IMG/VR virus record: IMGVR_UViG_3300045988_097988
Origin: a virus
Strand: one strand, 5' to 3'
Length of the DNA stretch: 50,875 bases
Position 1 is the stretch's first letter. Each line of letters begins with the position of its first letter. Shown here piece after piece: positions 185 to 50,875 of this stretch. Made by a program: the position numbers and the translations under genes. A model generated the notes under the pieces. It was not told the DNA's origin and ran no database searches. It saw only the letters and a program-made list of their open reading frames with translations.

Positions 185-1318
185 CTACCCGTGAGCCTTT
201 TTGAGTGCCGCCGTCGTCGCCTCCGCCAGCTCCTCGCGCTGGCCCTGCAGCTCGTGGCGGTAGACGCCGAACGTGTCCATATTCCGGGAGTGGCCTACCA
301 GCATCTTGAGCTGGCCGTCCGTAAGCTCCCCGGCCTCGACGCTGACAAAGGTATGCCTCAGCTCGTAGAGAGTAATGCGCGGCGTGATACCGTTGCCGTC
401 TTGATACTTCTCCCACCGCCGCTTGAGTGACCGCTGGCATGGAATCTGGAACAGGGGCGTGTTGTAGTTGAGCTGGACGCCTGAGTCCTTGAGGAGCTGC
501 ACCTGAGCCTCGTATGCTTCCCGGGCCTGCTGGCACATATCAAAGCTGCGGATGCTGTTTTCATTTTTGCCCGTCGTCGTCTCGTCCTCGACGTTGACAC
601 TCCGCCGGAGGTTGACGGTGTTGCCCTTTATATCCCCGTACCAAAGGCCGACCAGCTCACCGGGGCGCAGGCCCGTAGAGACGGCGAAACGGTAGGCATA
701 GATATAATCATCAAAGATGTGTTTCGCGTACCATTTCCGGGTGTCAACCGAAAAGAGGGTGCGGAGAGCCTGCGGCTGCAAAATCTCCCTCTTTCCGACC
801 CGGGCATTTTTCGGGACGTCGAGGTCTGGATTCAGAGTCGTGTACTTATTCCGGCGGCACCATTTTACAAAAGCCTTTTCGGTGGAGCGAATAGTCGAGA
901 GCGTCTTTTTGCTCAACGGCGTATCGCCTGTGCGCTTTGCGCCCTTTTTGAGGCACCGCTTTTTGTATGACATATCGATGCACTTTTGCAAATCGCCCTC
1001 GGTCAACTCGTCTATGCGGAGATTCTCGATGACGGGCAGGATATAATAATCTCCGTATTTTGCGCACTGCTTGACGTAGGACGTGCCGCAGGTCAGCTTC
1101 AGTTCCTCGACCCACTCCCGGTAGAGTGGGCCGACCTTTTTCCTGCCATCCCGGATACTATCGTCAAGCCAAGCGTCCGCCTTTGCGTTCGCTTCCCGCT
1201 GCCCGGTACGGCCCGGAGTGCTGCTATAAAAGCTTTTCAGCACCCCGTTTTTCTGTACCCGGATGCGCCAGCGTTTTGTCTGTTCCTGCCACTCGGCTGT
1301 TGTTGTCCTCTTCCTCAA
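185..1318 (-). CDS. int: Tyrosine recombinase / phage integrase
   Basis: 377 aa. The C-terminal catalytic signature is present (LRPGE..., YELRHTF, GHS...GVYRHE). It is adjacent to attL. Confidence 0.9.
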   Translation of the reverse strand: MRKRTTTAEWQEQTKRWRIRVQKNGVLKSFYSSTPGRTGQREANAKADAWLDDSIRDGRKKVGPLYREWVEELKLTCGTSYVKQCAKYGDYYILPVIENLRIDELTEGDLQKCIDMSYKKRCLKKGAKRTGDTPLSKKTLSTIRSTEKAFVKWCRRNKYTTLNPDLDVPKNARVGKREILQPQALRTLFSVDTRKWYAKHIFDDYIYAYRFAVSTGLRPGELVGLWYGDIKGNTVNLRRSVNVEDETTTGKNENSIRSFDMCQQAREAYEAQVQLLKDSGVQLNYNTPLFQIPCQRSLKRRWEKYQDGNGITPRITLYELRHTFVSVEAGELTDGQLKMLVGHSRNMDTFGVYRHELQGQREELAEATTAALKKAHG

Positions 1319-1734
1319 TTCAGACGGCCCCCTTTCATCTCTTTATAAAAGTAATATGCCCGGCGGACGTACTCCTCTGTAGTGTCCAGCTCCTCGGCTA
1401 TCTCCCAAGCGTCCAACCCGGCCTTGAGCATGGCCATCAGCTTATCTTCCGGGATTGCGTGAAGTATATACCAGCGGTCAGCGCGGGCCTCGTGTTGCTC
1501 TTTTATATCAAAGGGCGTCCGGCGGGTATAAAATCCCCCATAGAGGCAGTGGCCCAGCTCGTGGCCAAGCCGGGCGGCTTCTTCCCCTCGGGTAAACCGC
1601 CGGGTGCTGTCCATCCCGATATAGCACCGCCCGTCCTGCTCAATGCACAAGCTACCCGTCTCCGGCAGAGGAAAGCCCAAGACTTCGACGCCGTTTTCCT
1701 CGGCTATCCTGTAAAATTCACTGGCTTTTTCCAT
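1315..1734 (-). CDS. ImmA/IrrE-family metallopeptidase (repressor-cleaving protease)
   Basis: HEXXH motif (LGHELGHCLYG). It overlaps and is co-oriented with the XRE repressor gene, the classic ImmR/ImmA arrangement. Confidence 0.8.
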   Translation of the reverse strand: MEKASEFYRIAEENGVEVLGFPLPETGSLCIEQDGRCYIGMDSTRRFTRGEEAARLGHELGHCLYGGFYTRRTPFDIKEQHEARADRWYILHAIPEDKLMAMLKAGLDAWEIAEELDTTEEYVRRAYYFYKEMKGGRLN

Positions 1735-2086
1735 TCGCGTCCCGCTCCTTTACAAAACGGGCGAAGCACTTGACCTCCTGATACTGAGCGTCTGTAGCGT
1801 CGCCCCCAAAAAGCGCGTGTTTAATATCTTCTTCTGTCACCTCGCGGCGATTAGCTGCGGGGGCTTTTTCTTTTTCAGGGGAATCTGTCTCGCCGTATAG
1901 GTATGCGCTAGTCGTTCCAAGCTGCTGCGCGCACAGGAGAACAAAATCCCGGGGAGGTTCTTTGCCGCGCTTCTCAAACATTCGGATGTAGTTGTCCGCG
2001 TGGCCGGAAAGTTGGCAGAGTGCCTTTCTCGTCATTCCGTTGCTTTTCAACAGGGCATCGAGTCGGTCAAACATAAAAGTGCTCAT
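1718..2086 (-). CDS. XRE-family HTH repressor (CI/ImmR-like)
   Basis: N-terminal HTH_3-like segment (GMTRKALCQLSGHADNYIRMFEKRGK). It is divergent from the early promoter/operator region. Confidence 0.8.
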   Translation of the reverse strand: MSTFMFDRLDALLKSNGMTRKALCQLSGHADNYIRMFEKRGKEPPRDFVLLCAQQLGTTSAYLYGETDSPEKEKAPAANRREVTEEDIKHALFGGDATDAQYQEVKCFARFVKERDANGKSQ

Positions 2087-2442: not shown

Positions 2443-2832
2443 ATGTTCGACATCAACAATGATTCCAAGCTGCGGGCAGCCTATATTTTTGTTATCGCTA
2501 TGGACGCCTCTCCGAAAGGGAGCAAAGGCGCACTGGACGCCTTGATGGTAGATGTGAAGCGTGAAATCCGGGCCTATATCCACCGCCCGGCGGCAGATAC
2601 CCGTATTGTACAAGAGCGCGGGTGTGACGGATATGTTGAGCTGGTACAGCTCCCGGATAGCCTCGACCGGGTACACAAGGAGATTACTGATGACTGGTTC
2701 CGAGCGACCCGTTACCTCGAGTTCTTCCCGACGCCCTACGACTGCTCAGGCCAGAAGTTTACCAGCTGGTATAAGCTCTTTCGCCGCCGGGGACATTGGT
2801 TCGCATATCACTGCGTAAGCATCGACGTTTGA
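2443..2832 (+). CDS. Hypothetical protein
   Basis: ATG at 2443 is preceded by GGGAGGG. The longer 2221 start in the ORF track runs through the previous gene in another frame. Confidence 0.6.
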   Translation: MFDINNDSKLRAAYIFVIAMDASPKGSKGALDALMVDVKREIRAYIHRPAADTRIVQERGCDGYVELVQLPDSLDRVHKEITDDWFRATRYLEFFPTPYDCSGQKFTSWYKLFRRRGHWFAYHCVSIDV

Positions 2833-2849
2833 GAGGAGGTCAAGAGGCG

Positions 2850-3092
2850 ATGAAAAGTTATACTGTAGACCTTATTCTTGAGGTTCGGGGCATAGTAGAG
2901 GTCGAGGCGGATAGCGTCACCGAAGCCTACCTCAAGGTAGGGAAGAATCCGGGCAAGTATTCCAACCCCAAGAGCTGGAACGGCATCGGGAACGCAGAGC
3001 TTAGGGCATACAGCCATATCGACTGCGTCTTTGAGCATAACGTCACGAGCGCGATTTCTACCGCCAGCGGAGAGGAGGCGAACGAAGAATGA
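2850..3092 (+). CDS. Small hypothetical protein (same small-protein family pattern)
   Basis: ATG at 2850 follows GAGAGGAGG. The protein begins MKSYTVDLILEVRGIVEVEADSVTEA. Confidence 0.55.
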   Translation: MKSYTVDLILEVRGIVEVEADSVTEAYLKVGKNPGKYSNPKSWNGIGNAELRAYSHIDCVFEHNVTSAISTASGEEANEE

Positions 3093-3361
3093 GAGGACAC
3101 ATTCAGGCCCCGGCAAAGCCCCCGGTAGGCAGCTACTGCAATATCCCGCACACCGAGCTGCGGGCCGTTATCCGAGGTCATAAGTACCGCGACCAAGACG
3201 TGGCGGAGGCAATCGGGATGCATACCAGTACGTTTTCGCTGAAGATGCGCGGTCACTCGGTTTGGCGCGGGGATGAAATCGCGGCCATCTGCGAGATGCT
3301 GGACATCCCACAGAAAGACATCGGGAAACTCTTTTTCCCGCAAATCAAGAAAGGAGCCTAA
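3089..3361 (+). CDS. HTH DNA-binding protein (Cro/DUF739-like)
   Basis: The segment DVAEAIGMHTSTFSLKMRGHSVWRGDEIAAICEMLDIP matches the phage DUF739/XRE pattern. Confidence 0.55.
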   Translation: MRGHIQAPAKPPVGSYCNIPHTELRAVIRGHKYRDQDVAEAIGMHTSTFSLKMRGHSVWRGDEIAAICEMLDIPQKDIGKLFFPQIKKGA

Positions 3362-3364
3362 ACA

Positions 3365-4279
3365 ATGGCATACGAAATCAACGAAGAGCTGGCCCGGCGG
3401 GCGCACGAGATGCGTTCCACTCGGGACTATAAGCCGGATTCGGCCACGGCGGAGTATCTGCGACAGGTCGAAGAGGCCCGGCGAATTGCCGAGGAGTCAA
3501 AAGCCCGATGCAAGACTACGGCCCAGCGGAACCGGGTAGACGGGATGCTCGACAAGTACGAGCGGACACTGGCCTTTGCCATCAACCGGGAAAATGAGGT
3601 CGGCACATGGTGTCCGAGTATCTTAATCGTCGGCGGCTCAAATTTCCCTGTGGCAAAGAAAAAGCGGCAAGTAGCCGCGATGGATGCGAACCGGGTCAAT
3701 TTTGACAAAGCCCGGGATATACTGGAAAAGATTCAGGGTTATGGCTATACGGCTCCTATCAACAGCCGCGACCCGGAAGCTCTGGCAGCCCTCCGGGAAG
3801 AACTGGACAAAGAGCGCGAGAGCCACGCCCATATGAAAGCTGTCAATGAGTATTTTAAGCGGTACGGCTCCCTAGATGGCTGCGCAGACGTCGGAGAGTA
3901 CGAGCGGGCCGAAATCGATGGCCGGATGAAGCAGTGGGGCGACCCGAGGCCGTTTGTATCGTGGCAGCTTGGCAACTCCCGCAAGCGCATTCAGCGGCTC
4001 GAAAACCGTATCAAAGAGATGGAGGCGGCTGTCGAGGCCAACGCCCAGCCCGTAGAGCTGGACGACCTCCCCGGCGTTACCTACCACGAAAACAGCGCGA
4101 CGATGCGGGTGCAGCTTATCTTTGAGGGTAAGCCAGAGCCGGACATCCGGGCCGTCCTCAAGTCTCACGCCTTTCGCTGGTGTCCCTCGCAGGGCGCGTG
4201 GCAGCGGCAGCTCAACGCCAACGGCAAGCGAGCGGCCCGCGAGGTACTGGAACAAATCAAGGCTTTACAGGGAGGTTGA
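3365..4279 (+). CDS. Hypothetical protein (possibly DUF3560-like)
   Basis: 304 aa, compact coding with an RBS. The C-terminal F-RW-PSQGAWQRQL pattern suggests the family. The family call is from memory only. Confidence 0.4.
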   Translation: MAYEINEELARRAHEMRSTRDYKPDSATAEYLRQVEEARRIAEESKARCKTTAQRNRVDGMLDKYERTLAFAINRENEVGTWCPSILIVGGSNFPVAKKKRQVAAMDANRVNFDKARDILEKIQGYGYTAPINSRDPEALAALREELDKERESHAHMKAVNEYFKRYGSLDGCADVGEYERAEIDGRMKQWGDPRPFVSWQLGNSRKRIQRLENRIKEMEAAVEANAQPVELDDLPGVTYHENSATMRVQLIFEGKPEPDIRAVLKSHAFRWCPSQGAWQRQLNANGKRAAREVLEQIKALQGG

Positions 4280-4283
4280 GACG

Positions 4284-4766
4284 ATGAATGACAAAGAGAG
4301 ATGGGCGGCAGAGGCCCGGGAACAGGTCTATAAGACCTTTGGCGTCGAACCGAAAGACGTTATGGAGAACGAGCGGGAATGCCTCTTGCAGGCGTTCCCG
4401 GGGAGCTTTATCAATAGCCGGGACGAGTTTATAGCTCACCCGCGCACGAACCAGTATTTTATCTTGAGCGACTGCAAGGCCCCGGAAGACGTCAAGGCCA
4501 AGGTGCTGGAATGGCTTTCCCGACCGTCGTGCAAGACCCAACCCTATTCTCAGGAGTGGCGCAACCGCAAGTTTCATACAGATATGCGGTTTTCGGTCAA
4601 CGCCTATCTAGATACGGACTTTTCACAAGAGGACATGGAGCTGATTTATAACTGGCTGGGGAACGCCGTCAATCATCGCTTGACGATGCTTTTTATTCGC
4701 AACGGGATGGATGTAGAGTGGCTGCGGGAGTTTGGCCCGGTTTTCCACTATCCTCCTGAAAAATAA
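4284..4766 (+). CDS. Hypothetical protein
   Basis: ATG at 4284 follows GGAGG. 160 aa. Confidence 0.55.
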   Translation: MNDKERWAAEAREQVYKTFGVEPKDVMENERECLLQAFPGSFINSRDEFIAHPRTNQYFILSDCKAPEDVKAKVLEWLSRPSCKTQPYSQEWRNRKFHTDMRFSVNAYLDTDFSQEDMELIYNWLGNAVNHRLTMLFIRNGMDVEWLREFGPVFHYPPEK

Positions 4767-18746: not shown

Positions 18747-18880
18747 GCCGTTGTAGCTCAAGTAGAGCGGTGGGCATTTAACCCACGTCACATTGACGAT
18801 ACGCAAGAGCGGCCCCGCCCGGCCTGTCCCCGGGACGGATTGAAACTCTTGTGGTGCTGGTTCGAGTCCAGCCATCGGCT
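18747..18880 (+). ncRNA. Aberrant tRNA-like gene with a 69-nt structured insertion at the variable-arm position
   Basis: The acceptor GCCGTTG/CATCGGC has one T-T mismatch. The D-stem is GCTC/GAGC with a 5-nt loop. The anticodon stem GTGGG/CCCAC has loop CATTTAA (A at position 33, central UUU). The 18787..18855 insert folds as CAAGAG...CCCGG-loop-CCGGG...CTCTTG. The T-arm is GCTGG-TTCGAGT-CCAGC. No CCA is encoded. Confidence 0.45.
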
Positions 18881-18888
18881 CTTTATAT

Positions 18889-18954
18889 GCCGCCTAGCGC
18901 AATTTGGAGCGCGCTCGTGGGAGTAGCCACGGGAGGTTCGATTCCGATGGCGGT
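18889..18954 (+). ncRNA. Degenerate tRNA-like element (pseudo-tRNA?)
   Basis: GCCGCC/GGCGG(T) acceptor-like pairing, a GCGC/GCGC D-stem, a 7-bp stem CTCGTGG/CCACGGG with the 6-nt loop GAGTAG, and a TTCGATT T-loop with a poor T-stem. It is only 66 nt long. Confidence 0.3.
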
Positions 18955-18959
18955 TTTAT

Positions 18960-19035
18960 ACTCGGGTAGCTCAACAGGCAGAGCGGCGGTCTCCAAAACC
19001 GCAGGCTGGTGGTTCGATTCCATCCCTGAGTGCCA
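18960..19035 (+). tRNA. tRNA-Trp (anticodon CCA), phage-encoded
   Basis: Canonical cloverleaf. The acceptor is ACTCGGG/CCTGAGT. The D-arm is GCTC-AACAGGCA-GAGC. The anticodon arm is GCGGT-CTCCAAA-ACCGC. The variable loop is AGGCT. The T-arm is GGTGG-TTCGATT-CCATC. The discriminator is G, and CCA is encoded. Confidence 0.9.
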
Positions 19036-19072: not shown

Positions 19073-19115
19073 AAAAGGCTGGACATTATACTCTAAACAA
19101 AGTATAGTAATAGCG
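19073..19115 (+). promoter_or_regulatory. Promoter/operator cassette, near-identical to 49458..49500
   Basis: TGGACA (19080..19085), 17-nt spacer, TATAGT (19103..19108). The operator TATACTC-N6-AAGTATA (19087..19106) lies in the spacer. 40 of 43 nt are identical to the 49.46-kb copy. Confidence 0.7.
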
Positions 19116-19156
19116 TAAGGAAAAGCCGAAAGGCTTGTAAGAAAGGAAGCGAGGAT

Positions 19157-19273
19157 ATGAATTTGAACGTAAGTGAAGCATTACTCAGAGCTATTTTGGA
19201 GCTTATCGACAAATGCGACACGCTTGAAGAGCTGCGCGAGAGCGTCAAGCGTATCGTCGGAGAAGATAAGTAA
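19157..19273 (+). CDS. Small ORF (38 aa), possibly a minimal ribbon-helix-helix protein
   Basis: MNLNVSEALLRAILELIDKCDTLEELRESVKRIVGEDK. The RBS is GCGAGGA. Its position matches that of the RHH genes in the 47-kb cassettes. Confidence 0.4.
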   Translation: MNLNVSEALLRAILELIDKCDTLEELRESVKRIVGEDK

Positions 19274-19356
19274 AAAAATTAGACCCCCCGCAAAGCCTGG
19301 CAAGCACCGGGGAGTCTAACGCCAAAATAGAGCCGCCCGGAAGCCTTACTCCGAGC
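19272..19356 (-). ncRNA. Candidate convergent small RNA (about 85 nt)
   Basis: It is bracketed by the minus-strand promoter at 19363..19391 and a minus-strand intrinsic terminator (GACTCCCCG...CGGGGGGTC plus TAATTTTTTT, plus-strand coordinates 19272..19316). It has a 5' hairpin CCGCTCGG...CCGGGCGG and contains no ORF. Confidence 0.5.
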
Positions 19357-19362
19357 GGTTTT

Positions 19363-19391
19363 ATTATACTATTTTTTCGGTAGCATTTCAA
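19363..19391 (-). promoter_or_regulatory. Minus-strand promoter TTGAAA-17-TATAAT
   Basis: On the plus strand, ATTATA is at 19363..19368 and TTTCAA at 19386..19391, with exact 17-nt spacing. Confidence 0.55.
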
Positions 19392-19418
19392 GCAGTCACA
19401 CAAAGTGGCTGCTTTTTT
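19391..19418 (+). terminator. Rho-independent terminator overlapping the -35 of the antisense promoter
   Basis: AGCAGTCAC / GTGGCTGCT stem (9 bp, one G-U), 5-nt loop, TTTTTT. Confidence 0.65.
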
Positions 19419-19446
19419 ATTTGCCGGAAGTTGGAGGAAAAGAACG

Positions 19447-19935
19447 ATGATTAGCAAAGAGCTGCTCAAGATGGCCGTCGCCGACCTAAAACCTTACGAA
19501 AACAACCCGCGCGTCATCTCCCCGGAGGCCGTCAACGCCTGCGCGGAGAGTATAAAGCAGTGCGGCTCCCTCGACCCTATCGAGGTGGACGAAAACAATG
19601 TCATCCTCAGCGGCCACACCCGCCGCCTCGCCTTGATGCAGCTCCACGTTGAGACCGCCGACGTCGTAAGGTACACGGGCCTGACCGACGAGCAGAAACA
19701 GAAATACCGCCTGCTGGCCAACAAAACGGGAGAGTTCACGGGCTGGGATTTCTCCAAGCTTGAGCGGGAGCTGAAAGAGGTCGATTTTGGGGATTTTGAC
19801 TTTGATTTTGACGGCGACATCCCCGACCCGACAGCCTCCGGCGCAGCGGAAGAGACCGCCCCGGACAGCTTCAAGGAGTACGACGAGGACATCAAGACCG
19901 AGCATAAATGCCCCGCTTGCGGGTACGAGTGGTGA
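19447..19935 (+). CDS. ParB-like nuclease-domain protein with a C-terminal zinc ribbon
   Basis: LKPYENNPRVISPEAV...IEVDENNVILSGHTRRLAL is the ParB N-terminal domain signature. The C-terminus is CPACGYEW. ATG at 19447 follows GGAGGAAAAG. Confidence 0.7.
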   Translation: MISKELLKMAVADLKPYENNPRVISPEAVNACAESIKQCGSLDPIEVDENNVILSGHTRRLALMQLHVETADVVRYTGLTDEQKQKYRLLANKTGEFTGWDFSKLERELKEVDFGDFDFDFDGDIPDPTASGAAEETAPDSFKEYDEDIKTEHKCPACGYEW

Positions 19936-21060: not shown

Positions 21061-21618
21061 GACAAGCAGGTTGCAGACTGCTTCGAGGATATGTTGAGCC
21101 GCTCTATCCCGGATTATCCCGTAATGAGAAACCTCGTGTACAGATTCGGCAGCAGAGTCTTGCGCGGCAGGCCCGCGCCTACCGTGGTAGACCTTGGATG
21201 CTCCAACGGCTTGGCCGTCCAGCGTTTCGCTGAGACGTTCCCGGATGCTCATTTCATCTTGAGGGACGTCTCGGAGGATATGGTACAGGCCGCGCGGGAG
21301 AGATACCCCGACGAAAGCCGTTTTGACATCGCCTGCGCCAACATCGCCGACGCCTACCCACTCTGTATGGCAGACCTTTGCCTTTTGGTATTGACCTTGC
21401 AGTTTACCCCGGTAGAGGAGCGGTAGGCCATCCTGCAAAAGGTATACCGCCGCATGAGGCCCGGCGGCGCACTCATTTTGGTGGAAAAGGTACTCGGGGA
21501 CGGCCAGAAAGCCGAGGAAGAGCTTACCGCCATCTACTACGACCTCAAAGAGGAACACAACTACACGCGGGAGCAGATAGCAGCAAAACGCCTCTCCCTG
21601 CGTCACGTCATGGAGCCG

Positions 21619-21646
21619 CTTAAAGCCGAGTGGGACGTGGAGATTT
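21619..21646 (+). repeat. 28-bp perfect direct repeat, copy 2 (cmoA C-terminal region, read in a different frame)
   Basis: Identical to 21033..21060. It is translated LKAEWDVEI here and LKPSGTWRF in copy 1. Confidence 0.9.
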
Positions 21647-21742
21647 TGCGCAAGGCGGGATTCTCTCACGTTTTCCAGTTCTGGCAGTGTCTGAATTTTT
21701 GCGGCTGGATTGCTTATAAGGACTGAAAGGGAGTGAGCAGCG

Positions 21743-46588: not shown

Positions 46589-46843
46589 ATGAAGTACAAC
46601 AACAAAGTCTCCGCTGGCACCATCGCTCGTACCGCCGTGCTGCTCCTCGCGCTGGCAAATCAGGTGCTGTCCGCTATGGGCAAGTCTCCGCTGCCCATCG
46701 AGTCCGCTGAGCTTGAGCAGCTCGTCACCGCTGGCATCACCTCCGTCGCGGCCCTCATCGCATGGTGGAAGAACAACTCTTTCACTCAGGCCGCGCTTGA
46801 GGCCGACAAGACCTATGACCGCGTGAAGAAGTCCGGCTATTGA
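46589..46843 (+). CDS. Holin, SPP1 family
   Basis: ARTAVLLLALANQVLSAMG ... AALIAWWKNNSFTQAA is the hallmark WWKNNSFT motif. Confidence 0.8.
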   Translation: MKYNNKVSAGTIARTAVLLLALANQVLSAMGKSPLPIESAELEQLVTAGITSVAALIAWWKNNSFTQAALEADKTYDRVKKSGY

Positions 46844-46887
46844 TACGTCTTCGCGGCGCCACGAAAACATACGGGAGGTAAATTTAT

Positions 46888-47076
46888 ATGCCCTTTGTTC
46901 CCCCTATCGTCTCGATGGGCGGCGTTATCGCGTCCATCAACTACATGATGCAGCAGGCCCGGAAGCGCCGGGAAGCGGAGGAGAAGAAGCGGCAGGAGGC
47001 GGAAGCCCGCCACACCTGCTCCAAAGACATCCCCTGCGAGAACTGCGTCCCGGGCTGCCACCTGAAAGAGGAGTAA
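46888..47076 (+). CDS. Small lysis-cassette protein with an N-terminal hydrophobic segment
   Basis: Strong RBS GGGAGGT. 62 aa. Confidence 0.45.
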   Translation: MPFVPPIVSMGGVIASINYMMQQARKRREAEEKKRQEAEARHTCSKDIPCENCVPGCHLKEE

Positions 47077-47204
47077 GGCCGCAACCATTTTCGGCACGTC
47101 ACGAAAATGGTTCTGGGCTGCTTACAATCTGAAAGCGGCTAAAACGCCCGTTTTTAACCCTTAACCCCTCGAAAAGTCCAACTTAACTGCTAAAAATGAG
47201 AAAA

Positions 47205-47254
47205 AACGGCCATTTTGGAGTCTAAACCCTCACGAAATGGCCGTTTCATTTTCA
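47205..47254 (+). terminator. Terminator-like hairpin at the end of the late/lysis operon
   Basis: AACGGCCATTT / AAATGGCCGTT 11-bp stem followed by a T-rich tract. A related hairpin AACCATTTTCG/CGAAAATGGTT is at 47083..47112. Confidence 0.55.
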
Positions 47255-47292
47255 GTTTTGACTATTTAGCTATCTGTCTACTTTGGTGTTTT

Positions 47293-47345
47293 CTTTGCAA
47301 TTTTGCAAAGAAAGTATTGACTTGTTATTAGCAACAGTATATAAT
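47293..47345 (+). promoter_or_regulatory. Operator palindrome plus promoter of RHH gene 1
   Basis: CTTTG-N8-CAAAG at 47293..47310. TTGACT (47317..47322), 17-nt spacer, TATAAT (47340..47345). A 10-bp inverted repeat CTTGTTATTA/TAATAACAAG flanks the -10. Confidence 0.7.
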
Positions 47346-47372
47346 TGTTGTTAATAACAAGGAGGTGAGCAG

Positions 47373-47546
47373 GTGGCTGGAAAGAGCCGCGCTGAATATT
47401 TCCGAGAACTCCGTAAAAAACAAAAGCAGCTTGTATTCCTTGTAGATAAGGGGAAGGCAGAAGCTCTTGACCGCAAACTCTCCGAGCGAGGCGAGAGCCG
47501 GGCAGAGTGGTTTAGACGGATTCTCGATAAAGAACTCAGCGAATAA
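47373..47546 (+). CDS. Ribbon-helix-helix (Arc/CopG-like) protein 1 (57 aa, GTG start)
   Basis: KQLVFLVDKGKAEALDRKLSERGESRAEWFRRILDKEL is an RHH pattern. The RBS is AAGGAGGTG. Below the ORF-track cut-off. Confidence 0.65.
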   Translation: MAGKSRAEYFRELRKKQKQLVFLVDKGKAEALDRKLSERGESRAEWFRRILDKELSE

Positions 47547-47619
47547 AAAATAACTGTACCCCGTCACCGTCCAAAGTACCGGGATACAGTTATCAGCGAC
47601 CGAGAGACAAGCCCACGGT
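47542..47619 (-). ncRNA. Candidate convergent small RNA 1 (about 78 nt)
   Basis: It starts downstream of the minus-strand promoter at 47626..47654. It ends at a minus-strand terminator hairpin (47550..47593) plus TTTTTTATT. It contains no ORF with an RBS. Confidence 0.5.
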
Positions 47620-47625
47620 AAATTT

Positions 47626-47654
47626 ATTATACCACCGGGCGCGTTCTCTCACAA
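47626..47654 (-). promoter_or_regulatory. Minus-strand promoter TTGTGA-17-TGGTATAAT
   Basis: On the plus strand, ATTATA is at 47626..47631 and TCACAA at 47649..47654. There is an extended -10 TG. Confidence 0.6.
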
Positions 47655-47673
47655 GAGAAAGAGAGAACTTTTT
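47643..47673 (+). terminator. Plus-strand terminator overlapping the antisense -35
   Basis: GTTCTCTC / GAGAGAAC stem, 10-nt loop, TTTTT. Confidence 0.55.
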
Positions 47674-47690
47674 CCAGTGGTGAGCAAAAG

Positions 47691-47742
47691 CTTTGTGTTT
47701 TTGCAAAGAAAATATTGACTTTTGTGTATCCAAGGGTATAAT
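47691..47742 (+). promoter_or_regulatory. Operator palindrome plus promoter of RHH gene 2 (paralogue of 47293..47345)
   Basis: CTTTG-N8-CAAAG at 47691..47708. TTGACT (47715..47720), 16-nt spacer, TATAAT (47737..47742). Confidence 0.65.
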
Positions 47743-47776
47743 GTACTTATGGGGACACAAAAGAGAGGTGATGCGA

Positions 47777-47947
47777 ATGTCACCCAAAATGGGCCGACCA
47801 ACAACCGACCCTAAGACCCACGAAATGCGCATTAGAATGTCCGATAAAGACGTTCAGACCCTTGAATCGTGCTGCGAAAAATCCGGCATGACGAAAGCGG
47901 ACGTAATTCGTCAGGGGATACGGCTGTTTCTTGAGAGCCTAAAATAA
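47777..47947 (+). CDS. Ribbon-helix-helix (CopG-like) protein 2
   Basis: HEMRIRMSDKDVQTLESCCEKSGMTKADVIRQGIRLFLESL is an RHH pattern. ATG at 47777 is 8 nt after AGAGAGG. ATG at 47771 or 47789 is also possible. Confidence 0.65.
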   Translation: MSPKMGRPTTDPKTHEMRIRMSDKDVQTLESCCEKSGMTKADVIRQGIRLFLESLK

Positions 47948-48026
47948 GAAAATCCCTCACACTGTTGTATCTTGGCGGACGCACAGTGCAAGGGATTCCA
48001 CAAGCCCGAGAGGAATTTCCCCGGGT
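47941..48026 (-). ncRNA. Candidate convergent small RNA 2 (about 86 nt)
   Basis: It starts downstream of the minus-strand promoter at 48033..48061. It ends at the hairpin 47951..47997 plus a T-rich tail. It shares the GGGCTTGT motif with sRNA 1. Confidence 0.5.
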
Positions 48027-48032
48027 AAATTT

Positions 48033-48061
48033 ATTATACCACTGGGAAGAGCCTCTCACAA
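48033..48061 (-). promoter_or_regulatory. Minus-strand promoter TTGTGA-17-TGGTATAAT (second copy)
   Basis: On the plus strand, ATTATA is at 48033..48038 and TCACAA at 48056..48061. The 24-bp block GGTAAATTTATTATACCAC(C/T)GGG is shared with 47617..47640. Confidence 0.6.
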
Positions 48062-48080
48062 GTGCAAGAGAGGTATTTTT
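48052..48080 (+). promoter_or_regulatory. Hairpin whose 3' arm contains the RBS of the 48081 gene
   Basis: CCTCTC / GAGAGG stem, 10-nt loop, then TATTTTT-ATG. GAGAGG is the only SD-like element for ATG at 48081. Confidence 0.5.
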
Positions 48081-48344
48081 ATGAATACGCAAGAAATTCT
48101 GAACAAATGTAGCGAAATCGAGGCAGACGCCGGGGACGCTCTGCATCTCCTCCGGGCCTTTGGGGTCTGGTTTGACAAGAGCTTCAAGGCGTATGACCTT
48201 GACCGCCGTTTTGACCCCAACGCTGCCGCCGACCTCTGGGCCGAATGCCCCGACTTCGCCGCCGTACTGGATGCTGCTGTGTGCGCTTTGCTCAAGGCAG
48301 ACCGCGCACTCGACAAGCTGAGTGAGGAGGGCGTGGAAGAATGA
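48081..48344 (+). CDS. Hypothetical protein
   Basis: 87 aa. Overlaps the antirepressor gene start (ATGA). Confidence 0.5.
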   Translation: MNTQEILNKCSEIEADAGDALHLLRAFGVWFDKSFKAYDLDRRFDPNAAADLWAECPDFAAVLDAAVCALLKADRALDKLSEEGVEE

Positions 48345-49078
48345 ACGAGCTGCAGGTGTTTGACAACCCCGAGTTTGGGGCTATCCGTACCCTCGACGAT
48401 GCCGACGGCACCATTTTGTTTTACGCTACCGATGTAGCTAAGGCCCTCGGATACTCAAAGCCGCAGGCCGCTATCGCCAAGCACTGCCGGTACTCCGTGA
48501 AACGGGGAGTACCTCATCCGCAGGCTCCCGACAAGGTTATTGAGATGAATTTCATCCCGGAGTCTGACCTTTACCGCCTGATTTTCAGCAGCAAGCTCCA
48601 GAACGCCGAAAAGTTTACCGACTGGGTAACGGGCGAGGTGCTGCCGAGCATCCGCAAGAACGGCGGATACATCGCCGGGCAGGAAGAGCTTTCTCCGCAG
48701 GAGCTTATGGCAAAAGCCCTGCTGGTGGCAAATAAGACCCTCGCAGACCGCGAGGCCCGTATCTCCGAGCTGACGGTGCAGAATCAAATCATGGCCCCGA
48801 AAGCGGAGTATTTCGACGCTCTGGTTGACCGCAACCTGCTGACGAGTATCCGCGAGACGGCAAAGCAGCTCAATTTCGGCGAAAAGGCTTTTGTCCGCTT
48901 CCTGCTGGAGAAGAAATATCTCTACCGCAACAAGAAAGGCAAGTTGATGCCCTACGCCGACAAAAACAACGGGCTGTTTGAGGTAAAAGAGTGCCTCAAC
49001 GAAAAGACCCAGTGGAGCGGTGTTCAGACGCTTGTGACCCCCAAGGGCCGAGAGACGTTCCGGCTGCTGTACCTCTAA
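48341..49078 (+). CDS. ant: Antirepressor (BRO-N domain plus KilA-C/ANT C-terminal domain)
   Basis: LQVFDNPEFGAIRTLDDADGTILFYATDVAKALGY ... LYRLIFSSKLQNAEKFTDWVTGEVLPSIRKNGGY is BRO-N. AEYFDALVDRNLLTSIRETAKQL is the phage antirepressor C-terminus. Confidence 0.8.
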   Translation: MNELQVFDNPEFGAIRTLDDADGTILFYATDVAKALGYSKPQAAIAKHCRYSVKRGVPHPQAPDKVIEMNFIPESDLYRLIFSSKLQNAEKFTDWVTGEVLPSIRKNGGYIAGQEELSPQELMAKALLVANKTLADREARISELTVQNQIMAPKAEYFDALVDRNLLTSIRETAKQLNFGEKAFVRFLLEKKYLYRNKKGKLMPYADKNNGLFEVKECLNEKTQWSGVQTLVTPKGRETFRLLYL

Positions 49079-49081
49079 AAT

Positions 49082-49354
49082 TTAATCTTCCGGGCCGGGC
49101 CTCTGCATCTCGCAGGGTTCCGGCCCTTTTTCTGTTTCATCCTCGGGCAAGACCTTGCCGCCGGGCGTCTTGACCTGAACCGTGCCGCCCATCAGCGAGA
49201 TGATTTTCACGAAGTCGTCATAGTTCTTGACACCTTTATATAAGGCGTTGCTGACGCTCTGGGGCCGGATGCCCAGCAGCTCCGAAAGCTGCTTGACCGA
49301 GGTTCCTGTCTCTTCCATGAGCTGCCGGATGAGTTTGGATGCCGACATATACAA
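49082..49354 (-). CDS. XRE-like HTH regulator, divergent from the operator cluster
   Basis: GTSVKQLSELLGIRPQSVSNALYKG is an HTH. The RBS AGGAGG lies upstream on the minus strand. Confidence 0.7.
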   Translation of the reverse strand: MYMSASKLIRQLMEETGTSVKQLSELLGIRPQSVSNALYKGVKNYDDFVKIISLMGGTVQVKTPGGKVLPEDETEKGPEPCEMQRPGPED

Positions 49355-49371
49355 CCTCCTCTCTTGTCTTT

Positions 49372-49400
49372 ATTATACCATGAGCCAAAACGCAATTCAA
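49372..49400 (-). promoter_or_regulatory. Promoter of the HTH regulator: TTGAAT-17-TGGTATAAT
   Basis: On the plus strand, ATTATA is at 49372..49377 and ATTCAA at 49395..49400. Confidence 0.6.
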
Positions 49401-49406
49401 GTGCAA

Positions 49407-49491
49407 TATACTCTAAACTGAGTATAAAATCTGAAAAATATACTCCAAACTGAGTATAAAAGGCTGGACATTATACTCTAAACAGAGTATA
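49407..49491. promoter_or_regulatory. Three 20-bp palindromic operators TATACTC-N6-GAGTATA
   Basis: O1 is at 49407..49426, O2 at 49439..49458 and O3 at 49472..49491. Centre-to-centre spacing is 32-33 bp. O3 fills the spacer of the rightward promoter. Confidence 0.75.
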
Positions 49492-49493
49492 AT
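49465..49493 (+). promoter_or_regulatory. Rightward promoter TGGACA-17-TATAAT
   Basis: TGGACA at 49465..49470 and TATAAT at 49488..49493. It is duplicated at 19080..19108. Confidence 0.7.
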
Positions 49494-49545
49494 AATAGTG
49501 TCAGAGGGAAAGAGAAAACAACAACCAAAACGGAGGAAAACAACA

Positions 49546-50064
49546 ATGAAAAAGTTTGAAATCGGCCACACCTACTTTGACCGCTACGCTTGCGACTACG
49601 AGACCCTGAGCGTCATCAAAATCGTAAAGCGCACCGCGAAGACGGTCGTTTTCGAGCGGAACGGCGAGACCCGCCGCGCCCTCCTCCGCGAGGACAGCAA
49701 CGGGGAATACATCATCCCCGACCACTACAGCATGGCCTGCGTCTACCGCGCAGACAGCGAGATTGTGGACGGCGTTCCCAACGACGAGCTGGACGTCTAC
49801 GAGACCGCCGAGGCCGAGGAAGCCCCGGAGAGCCTCGAAAACGCCCCCGTAGAGGCTGAGAAGCCCGAGGCAGGCAAGGTTATTTACTTCCCGGCTCAGG
49901 CCCGCAAACAGCCCGAGGTCACGGGCTACGCCGTGGCAGACGCTCTTGTCCGCTATACCGTCAAGCAGATGACGGGCGTTTTGTTCGGGGGCTGCGACCT
50001 CCGGGCGAAAGAGCTGGACTTTCTGGCGGCTCTTACCCAGCAGGCGGGCGGCGTCGTCAGGTGA
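49546..50064 (+). CDS. Hypothetical protein
   Basis: ATG at 49546 follows GGAGG. The earlier GTG at 49498 lies upstream of the predicted transcription start. Confidence 0.5.
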   Translation: MKKFEIGHTYFDRYACDYETLSVIKIVKRTAKTVVFERNGETRRALLREDSNGEYIIPDHYSMACVYRADSEIVDGVPNDELDVYETAEAEEAPESLENAPVEAEKPEAGKVIYFPAQARKQPEVTGYAVADALVRYTVKQMTGVLFGGCDLRAKELDFLAALTQQAGGVVR

Positions 50065-50681: not shown

Positions 50682-50782
50682 TTCAGCGCAAAAATAAAGA
50701 GAGGTCGGCGTCCCGATTCTTGGGCGTCGGCCCTTTTTCTTTGGGCCAAAACAAAGGGCTTTGTGTGCCGTAAAAATAAAAA

Positions 50783-50805
50783 CTGGGTCAAAAACTGGGT
50801 CAAAG
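50783..50805 (+). repeat. Tandem CTGGGTCAAA(A/G) repeats, candidate integrase arm-type sites (P arm)
   Basis: Same tandem pair and orientation as 141..163. It lies 46 bp from the core, against 117 bp at the left end. Confidence 0.6.
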
Positions 50806-50816
50806 GGCAAACAGAA

Positions 50817-50851: not shown

Positions 50852-50875
50852 TGGAGCGGGCAATGGGAATCGAAC
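50852..50875 (-). repeat. attR core, the 3' end of the presumably intact host tRNA (probably tRNA-Gly) that continues beyond the window
   Basis: Identical to 1..24. The acceptor 3' strand TGCCCGC, discriminator U and CCA are compatible with tRNA-Gly. The rest of the gene is outside the window, so the identity is provisional. Confidence 0.6.

Follow-up and report, generated by a model that had tools for sequence, protein, structure and literature searches.

The window, i.e., the whole stretch of DNA that was analysed (50,875 nucleotides; IMG/VR record IMGVR_UViG_3300045988_097988), is an integrated prophage, in which an integrase and att repeats are present, and its host is a gut Clostridia bacterium. 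The antirepressor-proximal region consists of two tandem control cassettes (47290-47680 and 47688-48083), each with a DNA-binding repressor gene of the RHH type, an opposing predicted small RNA, and an mRNA leader predicted to refold. They lie past the lysis genes, and the int gene and the HTH repressor are found at the opposite end of the prophage. The features are, in order:

47290..47313: upstream palindrome 1, TTTCTTTGCAA-TT-TTGCAAAGAAA, perfect 11-2-11, core CTTTG-N8-CAAAG
47317..47345, plus strand: promoter P1, TTGACT-17-TATAAT, 11/12 matches
47321..47361 (47321-36/47346-61): inverted repeats CTTGTTATTAGCAACA / TGTTGTTAATAACAAG at the P1 -10, putative RHH1 operator
47373..47546, plus strand: RHH1 gene, 57 aa, GTG start, phrog_3896 (E 1e-13)
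47544..47619, minus strand: predicted sRNA1, ~76 nt, with 5' SL1, terminator SL2 (47550-47593) and a U-run overlapping the RHH1 stop
47599..47650, plus strand: predicted leader helix B1, anti-terminator; 5' arm 47599-47620 inside the sRNA1 target, 3' arm 47630-47650
47626..47654, minus strand: predicted sRNA1 promoter, TTGTGA-17-TGGTATAAT, extended -10
47643..47673, plus strand: hairpin C1 (GTTCTCTC...GAGAGAAC), hairpin 47643-47668 followed by TTTTT, terminator-like, -10.9 kcal
47691..47708: upstream palindrome 2, CTTTGTGTTTTTGCAAAG
47715..47742, plus strand: promoter P2, TTGACT-16-TATAAT, 11/12 matches
47719..47763 (47719-32/47750-63): inverted repeats CTTTTGTGTATCCA / TGGGGACACAAAAG at the P2 -10, putative RHH2 operator
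47777..47947, plus strand: RHH2 gene, 56 aa, phrog_876 'transcriptional repressor' (E 3e-16)
47945..48026, minus strand: predicted sRNA2, ~82 nt, with SL1, terminator SL2 (47951-47997) and a U-run overlapping the RHH2 stop
48008..48057, plus strand: predicted leader helix B2; 5' arm 48008-48027 inside the sRNA2 target, 3' arm 48037-48057
48033..48061, minus strand: predicted sRNA2 promoter, TTGTGA-17-TGGTATAAT
48051..48080, plus strand: hairpin C2, anti-SD 48051-48057 paired to SD arm 48068-48074, then TATTTTT; terminator-like
48081..48344, plus strand: orf87, small ORF with no assigned family; its stop overlaps the ant start (ATGA)
48341..49078, plus strand: antirepressor, Bro-N (E 6e-21), KilAC/ANT (E 1e-24), phrog_130 Ant (1e-71)

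All the parts that the initial annotation had listed for the two cassettes are present, exactly where it placed them or a few bases away. It had described a duplicated module, which holds in so far as both cassettes follow one design; they are not a simple duplication, the RHH families being unrelated (phrog_3896 for RHH1 and phrog_876 for RHH2). Likeness between cassettes 1 and 2 is confined to regulatory stretches of 31 nt and 62 nt (87% and 77%), and a 19-nt sequence, GGTAAATTTATTATACCAC, occurs exactly twice vs 0.01 times expected. The region contains nine promoter-like sites, vs 1.7 +/- 1.2 in shuffles. When the 50.9 kb were scanned with a combined rule (a promoter, then 48-92 nt, then a hairpin and U-run), three units were returned on the minus strand and none on the plus strand, and 20 block-shuffled windows gave none. 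The third minus-strand unit, at ~19.3 kb, comprises a convergent small RNA and its terminator, and no obvious alternative of the helix B/hairpin C type is seen there.

The initial annotation had considered both small proteins to be of the RHH type, an assignment that is firm for RHH2, from profiles, and moderate for RHH1, from a weak Pfam match and from AF2/Foldseek. The fold is defined by a profile-recognisable domain of ~45 residues (strand, helix, G-x-S/T/N turn, helix), and RHH2 belongs to it by its profile matches. Its Pfam match to RHH_1 (E 1e-3, 19.3 bits) falls just under the 20.5 cutoff and is accompanied by MobC_2 and NikA-like matches, and its homologue in phiCD211 is annotated 'RHH protein, copG family'. 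The profile of its family matches CopG (1b01/2cpg) across the whole RHH domain at E 0.015-0.019, and the full-domain matches as a set (CopG 1b01/2cpg, SvtR, ORF56, ParG) range over E 0.015-0.1. The homologues of RHH1 form 114 clusters, which are unannotated; its match to Pfam RHH_1 reaches only E 0.022, below threshold, and a sequence-profile search of the PDB gave no match. Its AF2 model, built with an MSA (pLDDT 90), is extended over residues 17-25 and helical over 26-39 and 43-56. All six Foldseek matches of this model in the PDB are RHH proteins (CopG, VapB, MazE6), at E 4-8, and the superposition on CopG has a TM of 0.64-0.67 and an rmsd of about 2 A, with E above 4. Alignment of RHH1 with the RHH2 family by hhalign gave the right register (KQLVFLV/EMRIRMS, GESR/GMTK) at only E 0.029. 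From this modelling, RHH1 is probably an RHH protein with an extra N-terminal helix. Among natural proteins in the PDB, both families match CopG best, if weakly.

The inverted repeats situated at each promoter's own -10 were absent from the initial annotation. A P1-equivalent promoter is found in all RHH1 relatives, and TTGTT..AACAA repeats flank the -10 throughout the RHH1 family. In closer RHH2-family relatives the -10 is flanked by TTTTGTGT.ACC-type repeats, and distant members, as well as phiCD211, have other repeats at this same position. We infer that these repeats are putative operators, through which each RHH protein would repress its own gene.

On the opposite strand, 30 of the 35 distinct IMG/VR relatives, which reach as low as 30% RHH identity, have an antisense promoter 66-91 nt past the stop of the RHH gene, and at 31 of the 36 testable prophage loci of Clostridia genomes it lies 67-87 nt past this stop. 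Some promoter-like site occupies that position at 34 of these 36 loci, and many of the Clostridia antisense promoters are perfect TTGACA-17-TATAAT. The initial annotation had chosen the retention of promoter-like sequences in relatives as a check on itself, and their conservation, at a fixed distance, extends to over 60 loci that have diverged. Polarity is clear for the hairpin at the RHH stop. Its folding energy for sRNA1 is -25.3 kcal in the minus orientation vs -17.0 kcal in the plus orientation, and for sRNA2 two C.A mismatches of the plus strand are replaced by G.U pairs in the minus one. The minus-strand fold is the more stable one in 28 of 28 cassettes (-21.8 kcal vs -15.8 kcal for the plus strand, p 2e-6) and in 32 of 34 from the independent Clostridia set (60/62 combined). 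The U-run invariably lies on the minus side and in no cassette on the plus side. As read from these sequences, the stop-codon hairpin is a minus-strand terminator. All cassette small RNAs are folded as SL1 followed by the terminator; RNAalifold found no consensus structure in a MAFFT alignment of them, which was out of register.

These observations bear on another reading, that the minus-strand 'promoters' are chance matches in AT-rich DNA and the RHH genes end at ordinary hairpin terminators that work in both directions, with no functional small RNA made. The intergenic DNA is AT-rich, consensus scans are not proof, and an Rfam search with E up to 10 gave chance matches only; but the fixed promoter spacing shared by over 60 diverged loci, the minus orientation of the terminator in 60 of 62 cassettes with a U-run that is never on the plus side, the lack of units in block shuffles and the streptococcal homologue described below make this reading extremely improbable. 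The ORF-less minus-strand transcripts that had been proposed are borne out computationally by the conserved promoter and the minus-oriented terminator, and we consider these small RNAs very likely to be real. Their proposed size of 78-86 nt is corrected to about 74-79 nt for sRNA1 and 79-86 nt for sRNA2. Many unannotated small RNA genes are thereby predicted, which gene callers and Rfam have missed.

In prophage 370.3 of Streptococcus pyogenes SF370, the order is an RHH protein that shares 44% identity with RHH2, the small RNA, a small ORF and an antirepressor. The predicted 91-nt small RNA region is found at 100% identity only in SF370 and Alab49 prophages, exactly the distribution given for Spy_sRNA800369 in PMC4829319. 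There, Spy_sRNA800369 is placed on the minus strand of prophage 370.3, where it is antisense to a hypothetical phage gene's 3' UTR, with its own promoter and terminator, a length of <150 nt, a Northern signal (Le Rhun et al. 2015) and the top coverage in the table. The coordinates are consistent with this placement and, given its position, its strand and the strains that carry it, Spy_sRNA800369 is very probably the homologue of the cassette small RNA. The paper presents it only as an expressed antisense RNA with no function assigned, and makes no link to an RHH gene, a leader switch or an antirepressor. An orphan abundant antisense RNA of S. pyogenes would in this way gain a probable function.

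The refolding of the leader, which the initial annotation had missed, is predicted to oppose two structures. The 3' arm of helix B overlaps the 5' arm of hairpin C, and its 5' arm lies within the small RNA target, so that, in the folding models, B and C exclude each other. In cassette 2, the arms of B2 carry an SD mimic, GAGAGG (48008-13), in 5' and an anti-SD, CCTCTC (48052-57), in 3'. The second plus-strand hairpin had been said to bury the only SD of the next gene and it does: the 3' arm of C2 contains GAGAGG 48069-48074, the only SD ahead of the orf87 ATG at 48081. In cassette 1, C1 competes with B1, and the next element past C1 is cassette 2, with no gene between. The predicted start of sRNA2 (48026) precedes the SD (48069-74) by 43 nt, with the promoter -10 and -35 between them; since the small RNA starts this far upstream, its action must be through leader refolding (B vs C). 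The distance from the small RNA promoter -10 to the start codon is 42-51 nt for 14 of 18 correctly assigned starts, and 39-58 nt overall in relatives.

Helix B is specific to each locus. Duplexes between cognate arms have a mean of -19.2 kcal vs -9.6 kcal for non-cognate arms (MWU p 5e-14), and the mean z against shuffles is -4.4, or -4.65 in an independent set. Pairing covers 74.6% of the cells of alignment A5 vs 63.3% in shuffles (0/500), slid controls giving 37-50%, and the covariation score is 0.306 vs 0.148 (0/500). Because helix B covaries and its 3' arm is outside the small RNA gene, it appears to be selected in the mRNA strand. The predicted SD accessibility follows the same logic. Over 19 leaders, the mean probability that the SD is unpaired is 0.42 in the free leader, 0.14 when the target is masked and 0.42 when the anti-SD is shuffled (p 2e-6); in the window, it passes from 0.52 to 0.01 upon masking and is brought back to 0.42 by additional shuffling of the anti-SD. 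Masking lowers it from 0.64 to 0.00 in S. pyogenes and from 0.40 to 0.02 in phiCD211. Some loci are exceptions: even in the unmasked leader their SD is paired (L039, 0.01; L047, 0.03). These are thermodynamic predictions, which ignore co-transcriptional kinetics, ribosomes and RNases.

Hairpin C behaves otherwise in the cross-locus test, with little cognate specificity (mean -12.3 vs -9.5 kcal) and poor ranks, which we attribute to the fact that SDs are alike everywhere. A T-run follows both C1 and C2 and only 8 of 18 hairpins in relatives; termination is thus not universal to the mechanism. Both properties of hairpin C would also suit a scheme in which the small RNAs are real and the B/C switch is not used: polymerases would collide, or RNase III would cleave the duplex, a cut in the 3' UTR/leader duplex of the RHH mRNA uncoupling and destabilising the downstream part, and helix B would be incidental. 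Convergent promoters about 280 bp apart, full complementarity over ~75 nt and the ~19.3 kb unit, with its convergent small RNA and terminator and no obvious B/C alternative, are compatible with this scheme, but an incidental helix would not be expected to covary so strongly with a 3' arm outside the small RNA gene. Masking of the target also cuts SD accessibility specifically, an effect that anti-SD shuffling abolishes, and the -10 to start codon distance is tight (42-51 nt in 14/18 loci). We therefore regard the absence of a switch as unlikely, and retain the B/C switch as predicted from folding and covariation.

The genes downstream agree with the target, the antirepressor operon, that had been proposed: BRO-N/KilAC domains are encoded there, and the same families are met in relatives. 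RHH2, orf87 and the BRO-N/KilAC gene are co-directional, and no promoter-like site was found between them in the scan. The order of RHH gene, small ORF and antirepressor is the same in relatives, where the top downstream families, in the IMG/VR and Clostridia sets, are Bro-N, Rha, ANT, AntA and ORF6N. The interposed small ORFs (39-121 aa) belong to many unrelated families and overlap the next start codon at 17 of 22 loci. From its ATGA overlap, orf87 is likely to be translationally coupled to ant.

The reading that we favour, and hold to be probable, is that an autorepressing RHH protein is combined with a countertranscript that refolds the leader, by which the SD is hidden, transcription is terminated and the antirepressor is kept off. 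Each cassette would be a self-contained gate ahead of the antirepressor operon. P1 or P2, both strong, would direct synthesis of a small RHH protein that binds the repeats at its own -10, and the convergent promoter with its extended -10, situated between the RHH gene and the gene that follows, would produce a 65-90-nt RNA whose terminator adjoins the RHH stop. The RHH mRNA would run on into a leader with two folds. In helix B, GAGAGG 48008-13 would pair with CCTCTC 48052-57, leaving the real SD free and preventing the terminator; in hairpin C, the anti-SD would pair instead with the real SD (48069-74), just ahead of the T-run. The small RNA, a full complement of the 5' arm of B and not of its 3' arm, would block B upon pairing and let C form, so that the SD of orf87 would be hidden, transcription would tend to stop, and ant, whose translation would depend on orf87 through the ATGA overlap, would remain silent. 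Two gates would thus act in series, transcripts from P1 passing C1 then C2 and those from P2 only C2. On balance, the RHH protein would still be made and the antirepressor would be off once RHH protein and small RNA have accumulated, in the lysogen or late in infection; by analogy with P22, a brief burst of antirepressor may occur on entry into a naive cell. The antisense RNA flipping a switch between SD mimic, anti-SD and SD is a concrete and testable mechanism.

In P22 immI, the RHH repressors Arc and Mnt and the antisense sar RNA control ant, and sar covers the SD and start codon of ant, as can be followed on the X01916.1 sequence. In this record, arc stops at 531 and is abutted by a hairpin (537-567), after which come the SD (586-589) and ATG (600) of ant, a layout that places sar in the arc-ant gap, convergent to Pant and with its end adjoining the RHH stop codon. 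The 3'-convergent geometry had been thought to differ from P22; this does not stand, as sar is likewise convergent and adjoins the arc stop. The immI logic that had been recognised, an RHH gene and a countertranscript ahead of an antirepressor, is shared. In both cases the RHH gene (arc in P22) is directly upstream of the antirepressor and, for the cassette by gene arrangement, co-transcribed with it; the countertranscript, predicted computationally here, issues from the gap between RHH gene and target, convergent to the operon promoter; and the module is far from the main repressor locus. Unlike sar, which is 68/69 nt long (PMC12197685), the cassette small RNA is not complementary to the RBS and starts ~43 nt upstream of the SD. 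There is also no divergent Mnt-like gene, the second RHH gene being co-directional and upstream, and a small ORF sits before ant and overlaps it. The proteins and DNA of the window gave no Arc/Mnt match in Pfam and no match to sar in Rfam, which we take to include a P22 sar family.

The copG-RNAII-repB region of pMV158 has an RHH autorepressor followed by a gap-encoded countertranscript with a 5' tail and an intrinsic terminator, complementary to the mRNA just upstream of the target initiation signals, which are left uncovered (PMC4485353). The cassettes resemble it in their ~45-57-aa RHH protein, with autorepression inferred from the repeats, and in their tail and terminator countertranscript. 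They differ in their target, a phage antirepressor operon and not a rolling-circle Rep initiator, in the length of the small RNA (65-90 nt with an extra 5' stem-loop vs 48 nt for RNAII), and in their explicit B/C alternative and tandem arrangement. In plasmids pT181 (RNAI) and pIP501 (CopR and RNAIII), a countertranscript acting on the nascent leader decides between a pre-emptor and a terminator helix; CopR is not known to be an RHH protein. The predicted cassette leaders likewise contain mutually exclusive helices, with the antisense target in the 5' arm of the pre-emptor, and, as in pIP501, antisense RNA is combined with a small repressor protein. Unlike in these plasmids, the 3' arm of the terminator is the SD itself, so translation would be blocked too; about half of the relatives lack the T-run, and the carrier is a phage. 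In the copB-CopA-tap-repA system of R1, the RNA blocks tap translation, to which repA is coupled. In P1/P7 immI, c4 RNA blocks the small upstream ORF icd, to which ant expression is coupled (for P1, PMC12197685). The cassette shares with both a coupled small upstream ORF, orf87 overlapping ant by ATGA; c4 is co-directional and processed from the same transcript, whereas the cassette small RNA is convergent. The initial annotation had believed the arrangement to be undescribed for Clostridia-type phages. This must be narrowed, since pMV158 has the same layout (PMC4485353) and the S. pyogenes RNA had been detected, with no function assigned to it (PMC4829319); as a unit, the cassette is apparently undescribed. 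What is new relative to P22 and pMV158 is that the small RNA leaves the SD uncovered and that different RHH families stack, up to four in relatives.

The cassette layout is kept in more than 60 diverged relatives, from IMG/VR phages and Clostridia prophages to phiCD211 and SF370 370.3. It is carried by prophages of Faecalibacterium, Ruminococcus, Oscillospiraceae and Lachnospiraceae, by C. difficile phiCD211-like phages, and by prophages of S. pyogenes and other streptococci; by these sequence comparisons, the design is widespread in phages of Gram-positive bacteria, one compact module recurring in prophages of major gut Clostridia, C. difficile phages and streptococci. Antirepressors decide prophage silence, and their restraint in Gram-positive phages is poorly known: in a 2025 review of phage small RNAs, the cases of ant control are Gram-negative only and Gram-positive bacteria are unmentioned (PMC12197685).

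At 19 of 110 loci, two to four cassettes whose RHH paralogues differ form an array, some arrays end in a small ORF with no recognisable antirepressor, and cassette parts are swapped between phages. Such arrays, together with the diffusible nature of small RNA and RHH protein, could suggest that cassettes act mainly in trans, as immunity by which the resident RHH protein and small RNA silence the cognate cassette, and through it the antirepressor, of an incoming related phage, stacked specificities widening the protection and control of the resident ant being secondary. At most loci, however, the cassette immediately precedes an antirepressor-type gene that belongs to the same phage, and we find a predominantly trans role very unlikely; trans action is, moreover, compatible with control of the resident antirepressor by leader refolding and not exclusive of it. 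More speculatively, and at a low probability in our view, the RHH-sRNA cassette could be a portable, stackable antirepressor 'lock' that recombines at a breakpoint within the small RNA gene, arrays forming a trans immunity repertoire: SL2 may move with the RHH gene and operators, and the 5' tail, promoter and switch with the target gene. If so, the two to four locks of an array, differing in specificity, would keep the antirepressors of incoming relatives silent and shield the resident prophage from induction by competitors; in gut Clostridia and streptococci, competition between phages would then have a further layer that is undescribed. The modular tandem layout could account for some of the cross-talk in immunity and induction among co-resident gut prophages, and small orthogonal repressor and small RNA parts are on offer for synthetic circuits in Firmicutes.

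Finally, the CTTTG-N8-CAAAG palindrome upstream of both promoters is a conserved candidate site for a further factor. Palindrome 1 ends 3 nt ahead of the P1 -35 and, in the relative L017, the palindrome half-sites are kept with a variable spacer, even where the RHH gene is swapped.

The window is a complete integrated prophage, whose ends carry a 24-nt direct repeat (bases 1-24 and 50852-50875) similar to the 3' terminus of a minus-strand tRNA gene. The two cassettes lie at the right end, past the endolysin and holin genes, and the integrase and HTH_3 genes at the left end; the cassettes are thus remote from the main switch, an arrangement in common with P22 immI. The initial annotation had listed for each cassette a palindrome, a promoter, a small RHH gene (RHH1, RHH2), a long hairpin, an opposing promoter for a small RNA (sRNA1, sRNA2) and a plus-strand hairpin with a T-run. 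By reading 46800-49600 and by using the ORF list, consensus scans and a repeat finder, we recovered every one of these parts in both cassettes. The features of both prophage ends are as follows.

185-1318, minus strand: integrase (tyrosine integrase), left end
1718-2086, minus strand: HTH_3 protein, left end
47290-47313: upstream palindrome 1, perfect 11-2-11 (repeat finder)
47317-47345, plus strand: promoter P1 of RHH1, near-consensus (consensus scans)
47373-47546, plus strand: small gene RHH1 (ORF list)
47550-47593: long hairpin adjoining the RHH1 stop codon
47654-47626, minus strand: antisense promoter TTGTGA-17-TGGTATAAT (consensus scans)
47643-47673, plus strand: hairpin and T-run over the -35 of this antisense promoter
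47691-47708: upstream palindrome 2 (repeat finder)
47715-47742, plus strand: promoter P2 of RHH2, near-consensus (consensus scans)
47777-47947, plus strand: small gene RHH2 (ORF list)
47951-47997: long hairpin adjoining the RHH2 stop codon
48061-48033, minus strand: antisense promoter TTGTGA-17-TGGTATAAT (consensus scans)
48051-48080, plus strand: hairpin and T-run over the -35 of this antisense promoter
49082-49354, minus strand: 90-aa HTH gene

The repeat finder also revealed, around the -10 of each plus-strand promoter, an inverted repeat of its own, which was absent from the first list. The second plus-strand hairpin has as its 3' arm GAGAGG (48069-48074), the sole SD before the ATG at 48081; the small ORF that starts at this ATG, orf87, overlaps by ATGA the gene of the BRO-N and KilAC protein (ant), which matches phrog_130 Ant. 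Chance is a very poor explanation for this cassette pattern. The 19-mer around the antisense -10 is present in two copies where 0.01 would be expected, and a scan of the window for promoter, spacer and terminator returned three minus-strand units; it returned no plus-strand unit, nor any unit in 20 block-shuffled windows. The description as a duplicated module is imprecise: only regulatory stretches of 31 and 62 nt are common to both cassettes (87% and 77%), and the proteins are not paralogue copies; RHH1 and RHH2 belong to different PHROGs and their profile-to-profile alignment reaches an E-value of 0.029 only. Near both prophage ends (134-166 and 50773-50806), AAACTGGGTCAAAAACTGGGTCAAA is repeated and may represent arm sites.

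By several weak-to-good lines of sequence evidence, RHH2 is an RHH repressor (phrog_876; Pfam RHH_1, E 1e-3; a PDB profile search that matched CopG, SvtR, ORF56 and ParG). RHH1 belongs to a tight family of 114 clusters, none of them annotated, and PDB sequence profile searches with it gave no match. Its AlphaFold2 model built with an alignment of database homologues (pLDDT 90) places two helices after an extended segment, in the RHH register, and all six Foldseek matches of this model are RHH proteins, with non-significant E-values; the model built without alignment has three helices and no Foldseek match. RHH1 is thus, from its modelled fold, probably an RHH protein as well. From the position of the -10 repeats and their co-variation with the protein family, we infer that the RHH proteins would bind these repeats and would be autorepressors. 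The CTTTG-N8-CAAAG palindrome is confined to the lineage of the window. One relative, L017, retains both copies with altered spacers, although its first cassette has another RHH gene and other -10 repeats; this retention despite the swap argues that the palindrome is a real site, for a factor other than the cassette RHH protein. A third match, at 50739, was judged to be due to chance, being near the prophage end and without a promoter. The product of the 90-aa HTH gene was ruled out as the palindrome binder, since its region carries another repeated operator, TATACTCTAAAC.GAGTATA. Three copies of this 20-bp palindromic operator lie within 49407-49491, between the 90-aa HTH gene and the rightward genes, and a fourth, at 19087-19106, lies in the promoter of a unit at 19 kb; together they look like a second small regulatory circuit joining the two regions.

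Searches of IMG/VR with the two RHH proteins gave 16 and 55 loci, and a search of bacterial genomes, with a query built from the 10 closest RHH2 members, gave 39 loci, all of them in Clostridia (Faecalibacterium, Ruminococcus, Oscillospiraceae, Lachnospiraceae and three cultured isolates: Clostridium sp. AM49-4BH, Anaeromassilibacillus senegalensis and Muriventricola aceti). The RHH2 homologues that tblastn identified among cultured phages belong to C. difficile phiCD211/phiCDIF1296T, to many prophages and satellites of streptococci, and to Fusobacterium phage Funu2. As a DNA query, the 2.4-kb region matched no cultured phage outside the KilAC part of ant, and for the window region and the loci of S. 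pyogenes and C. difficile, Rfam yielded nothing beyond chance matches, all below gathering scores. The flanks of the relatives present a uniform order: TTGAC(A/T), a -10 flanked by family-specific repeats, the RHH gene, an A-run with the stop codon and hairpin, a minus-strand (TGn)TATAAT, a hairpin containing its -35, an SD and an ATG.

Conservation of the sRNA promoter in relatives, on which the initial annotation had staked its reading, was found in the viral and genome sets alike. Of the 35 distinct viral loci, 30 have the antisense promoter 66-91 nt past the RHH stop codon. A promoter-like antisense site is present in 34 of the 36 testable loci of the genome set, located 67-87 nt past the stop in 31 of them and often a perfect TTGACA-17-TATAAT. 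Moreover, the stop-codon hairpin is biased in strand as a terminator. The minus-strand RNA forms the stabler hairpin in 28/28 cassettes (mean -21.8 vs -15.8 kcal, p 2e-6) and in 32/34 of the genome set, C.A mismatches of the plus strand being G.U pairs on the minus strand; the U-run is invariably on the minus side, where it is encoded by the A-rich final codons and stop of the RHH gene. The sRNAs of the window phage are presumably transcribed. The predicted sRNAs are 64-90 nt long and all share a short 5' stem-loop followed by a long terminator stem-loop. RNAalifold gave no consensus structure on a MAFFT alignment of 28 sRNAs, because stems of differing length throw the alignment out of register; we used instead per-sequence folding, duplex tests between cognate and non-cognate arms, and a pair count on an alignment anchored at the -10. 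The apex of the terminator stem-loop (window 47560-47585 and 47965-47985) carries a conserved CUUUGGUCGG-like motif, also present in the sRNA loops of L008, L009, L035-L038, L044, L048 and others. Most cassettes have this motif on the sRNA strand, whereas cassette 2, L017, L043 and L067 have it on the mRNA strand; with its YUNR (UUGG), it may form a U-turn loop for fast RNA-RNA kissing.

Direct masking of the SD is impossible for the sRNA, whose predicted start, around 48026, lies 43 nt upstream of it. Recurrent in the folded leaders is a long helix, B, which encloses the antisense -10, its 5' arm lying within the sRNA-complementary part and its 3' arm in the interval from the antisense -10 to its -35. 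If the sRNA-complementary part is blocked in the folding, the 3' arm of helix B pairs with the SD, forming the mutually exclusive hairpin C. In cassette 2, the 5' arm of helix B holds a copy of the SD, GAGAGG (48008-13), which would compete with the real SD for CCTCTC (48052-57). Helix B is supported in several ways: cognate arms form duplexes of -19.2 kcal vs -9.6 for non-cognate ones (p 5e-14), the cognate arm is the best partner in 16 of 22 cases, and the mean z-score against shuffles is -4.4 (-4.65 in the independent genome set). On the -10-anchored alignment, 74.6% of helix B cells are paired vs 63.3% in shuffles (0/500), slid controls give 37-50%, and the covariation score is 0.306 vs 0.148 in shuffles (0/500). 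Masking the sRNA target lowers mean SD accessibility from 0.42 in the free leader to 0.14, and additional shuffling of the anti-SD brings it back to 0.42 (n=19, p 2e-6); the corresponding values are 0.52, 0.01 and 0.42 in the window, and masking lowers it from 0.64 to 0.00 in the S. pyogenes cassette and from 0.40 to 0.02 in phiCD211. In a few loci the SD is paired even without masking. Hairpin C has no cognate specificity in the duplex test, because SDs are alike everywhere. A T-run follows it in both window cassettes but in just 8 of the 18 relatives, so that what the loci have in common is SD sequestration, with termination as an add-on. Leader refolding as the mechanism, and its biological timing, are what we infer. 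Transcripts from P1 would run into C1 and then C2, the hairpins C of the two cassettes, and so meet two gates in series.

Bro-N, Phage_pRha, ANT/KilAC, AntA and ORF6N lead the Pfam families of the first two ORFs past the cassette, in the viral and genome sets alike. A toxin-antitoxin or defence reading was ruled out, as no toxin-like ORF is present and the downstream genes belong to antirepressor families; a plasmid copy-control reading was also ruled out, the element being an integrated prophage. The first ORF after the cassette is often a small one of varying family (comparison ruled out a single family preceding ant), which overlaps the next start codon in 17/22 loci, as orf87 does; this overlap suggests translational coupling. 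Of 110 loci, 19 have at least two units, spaced by 300-600 nt. There are three cassettes in L072 and four each in L091 and L095, every one with a distinct RHH paralogue (L095 array, 2630-4335); at the end of the two latter arrays stand an 82-aa ORF and then a metallo-beta-lactamase-fold gene, without a recognisable antirepressor. The cassettes are also mosaic, with a recombination joint inside the sRNA gene both between the window and L017 (47594-47680) and among streptococcal phages (L112 1694-1735 vs phages of S. equi, S. oralis, S. mitis and S. suis). The terminator stem-loop stays with the RHH gene, and the 5' tail, promoter and B/C switch stay with the downstream gene; the latter block can be nearly identical between phages that differ in RHH gene and terminator stem, and the converse is also found. 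Outside its first 18 or so codons, which are unrelated, orf87 is 85% identical to its L017 homologue, which therefore places a second joint just inside the target ORF (window 48081-48140 vs L017 3305-3360).

A counterpart has very probably already been detected as RNA. Le Rhun et al. (PMC4829319) validated by Northern blot an RNA shorter than 150 nt, Spy_sRNA800369, which is encoded with a promoter and a terminator of its own on the minus strand of prophage 370.3 of S. pyogenes SF370, antisense to the 3' UTR of a hypothetical phage gene. It has the highest coverage in the antisense table of that paper, is present beyond SF370 in strain Alab49 only, and is recorded there solely as an expressed antisense RNA (PMC4829319). 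In Javan489, the SF370 prophage record, an RHH2 homologue (21490-21660) precedes a small ORF and an antirepressor, and the 128-nt gap after it has the complete architecture. The region of the predicted 91-nt sRNA is 100% identical in exactly two phage records, those of SF370 and Alab49, and the spacing from the int-proximal sRNA named in PMC4829319 agrees with the assignment. It is thus very probable that Spy_sRNA800369 is the sRNA of the homologous S. pyogenes cassette.

The geometry had been thought to differ from that of P22. On the contrary, gene order and convergent layout are those of P22 arc-sar-ant, as checked on record X01916.1. The differences lie elsewhere: the P22 sRNA covers the RBS, which the sRNA leaves uncovered here, and immI has a divergent Mnt-like gene, which the cassettes lack; no homology to immI was detected. 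The pMV158 copG-RNAII-repB region has the same layout except for the target gene (PMC4485353), the B/C logic is like the attenuation mechanism of pT181/pIP501, and the coupled small ORF is reminiscent of P1 icd-ant and R1 tap-repA. Hence, the module is classed as working like these systems and not as a member of the P22 or pMV158 families; it represents a widespread, mechanistically specific variant of known circuits. That it was undescribed stands insofar as literature searches gave no account of the module, and a 2025 review of phage sRNAs includes no Gram-positive case (PMC12197685); it does not extend to the S. pyogenes RNA, already on record as expressed.

A third unit of similar design occupies 19084-19446 of the window, and its promoter carries the operator TATACTCTAAACAAAGTATA; no clear B/C alternative was found in it. 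Its parts are as follows.

19157-19273: 38-aa ORF
TSS at about 19356, terminator at 19280-19325, minus strand: convergent sRNA unit (terminator -24.9 kcal on the minus vs -16.2 on the plus strand)
19419-19441, plus strand: terminator with T-run
19447-19935: ParB-like nuclease gene, then a cytosine methyltransferase gene

A tRNA-Trp gene is located at 18960-19035 and, upstream of it (within 18800-19035), two stretches with a T-loop-like GGTTCGA(G/T)TCC, uncalled by ARAGORN, may be tRNA remnants.
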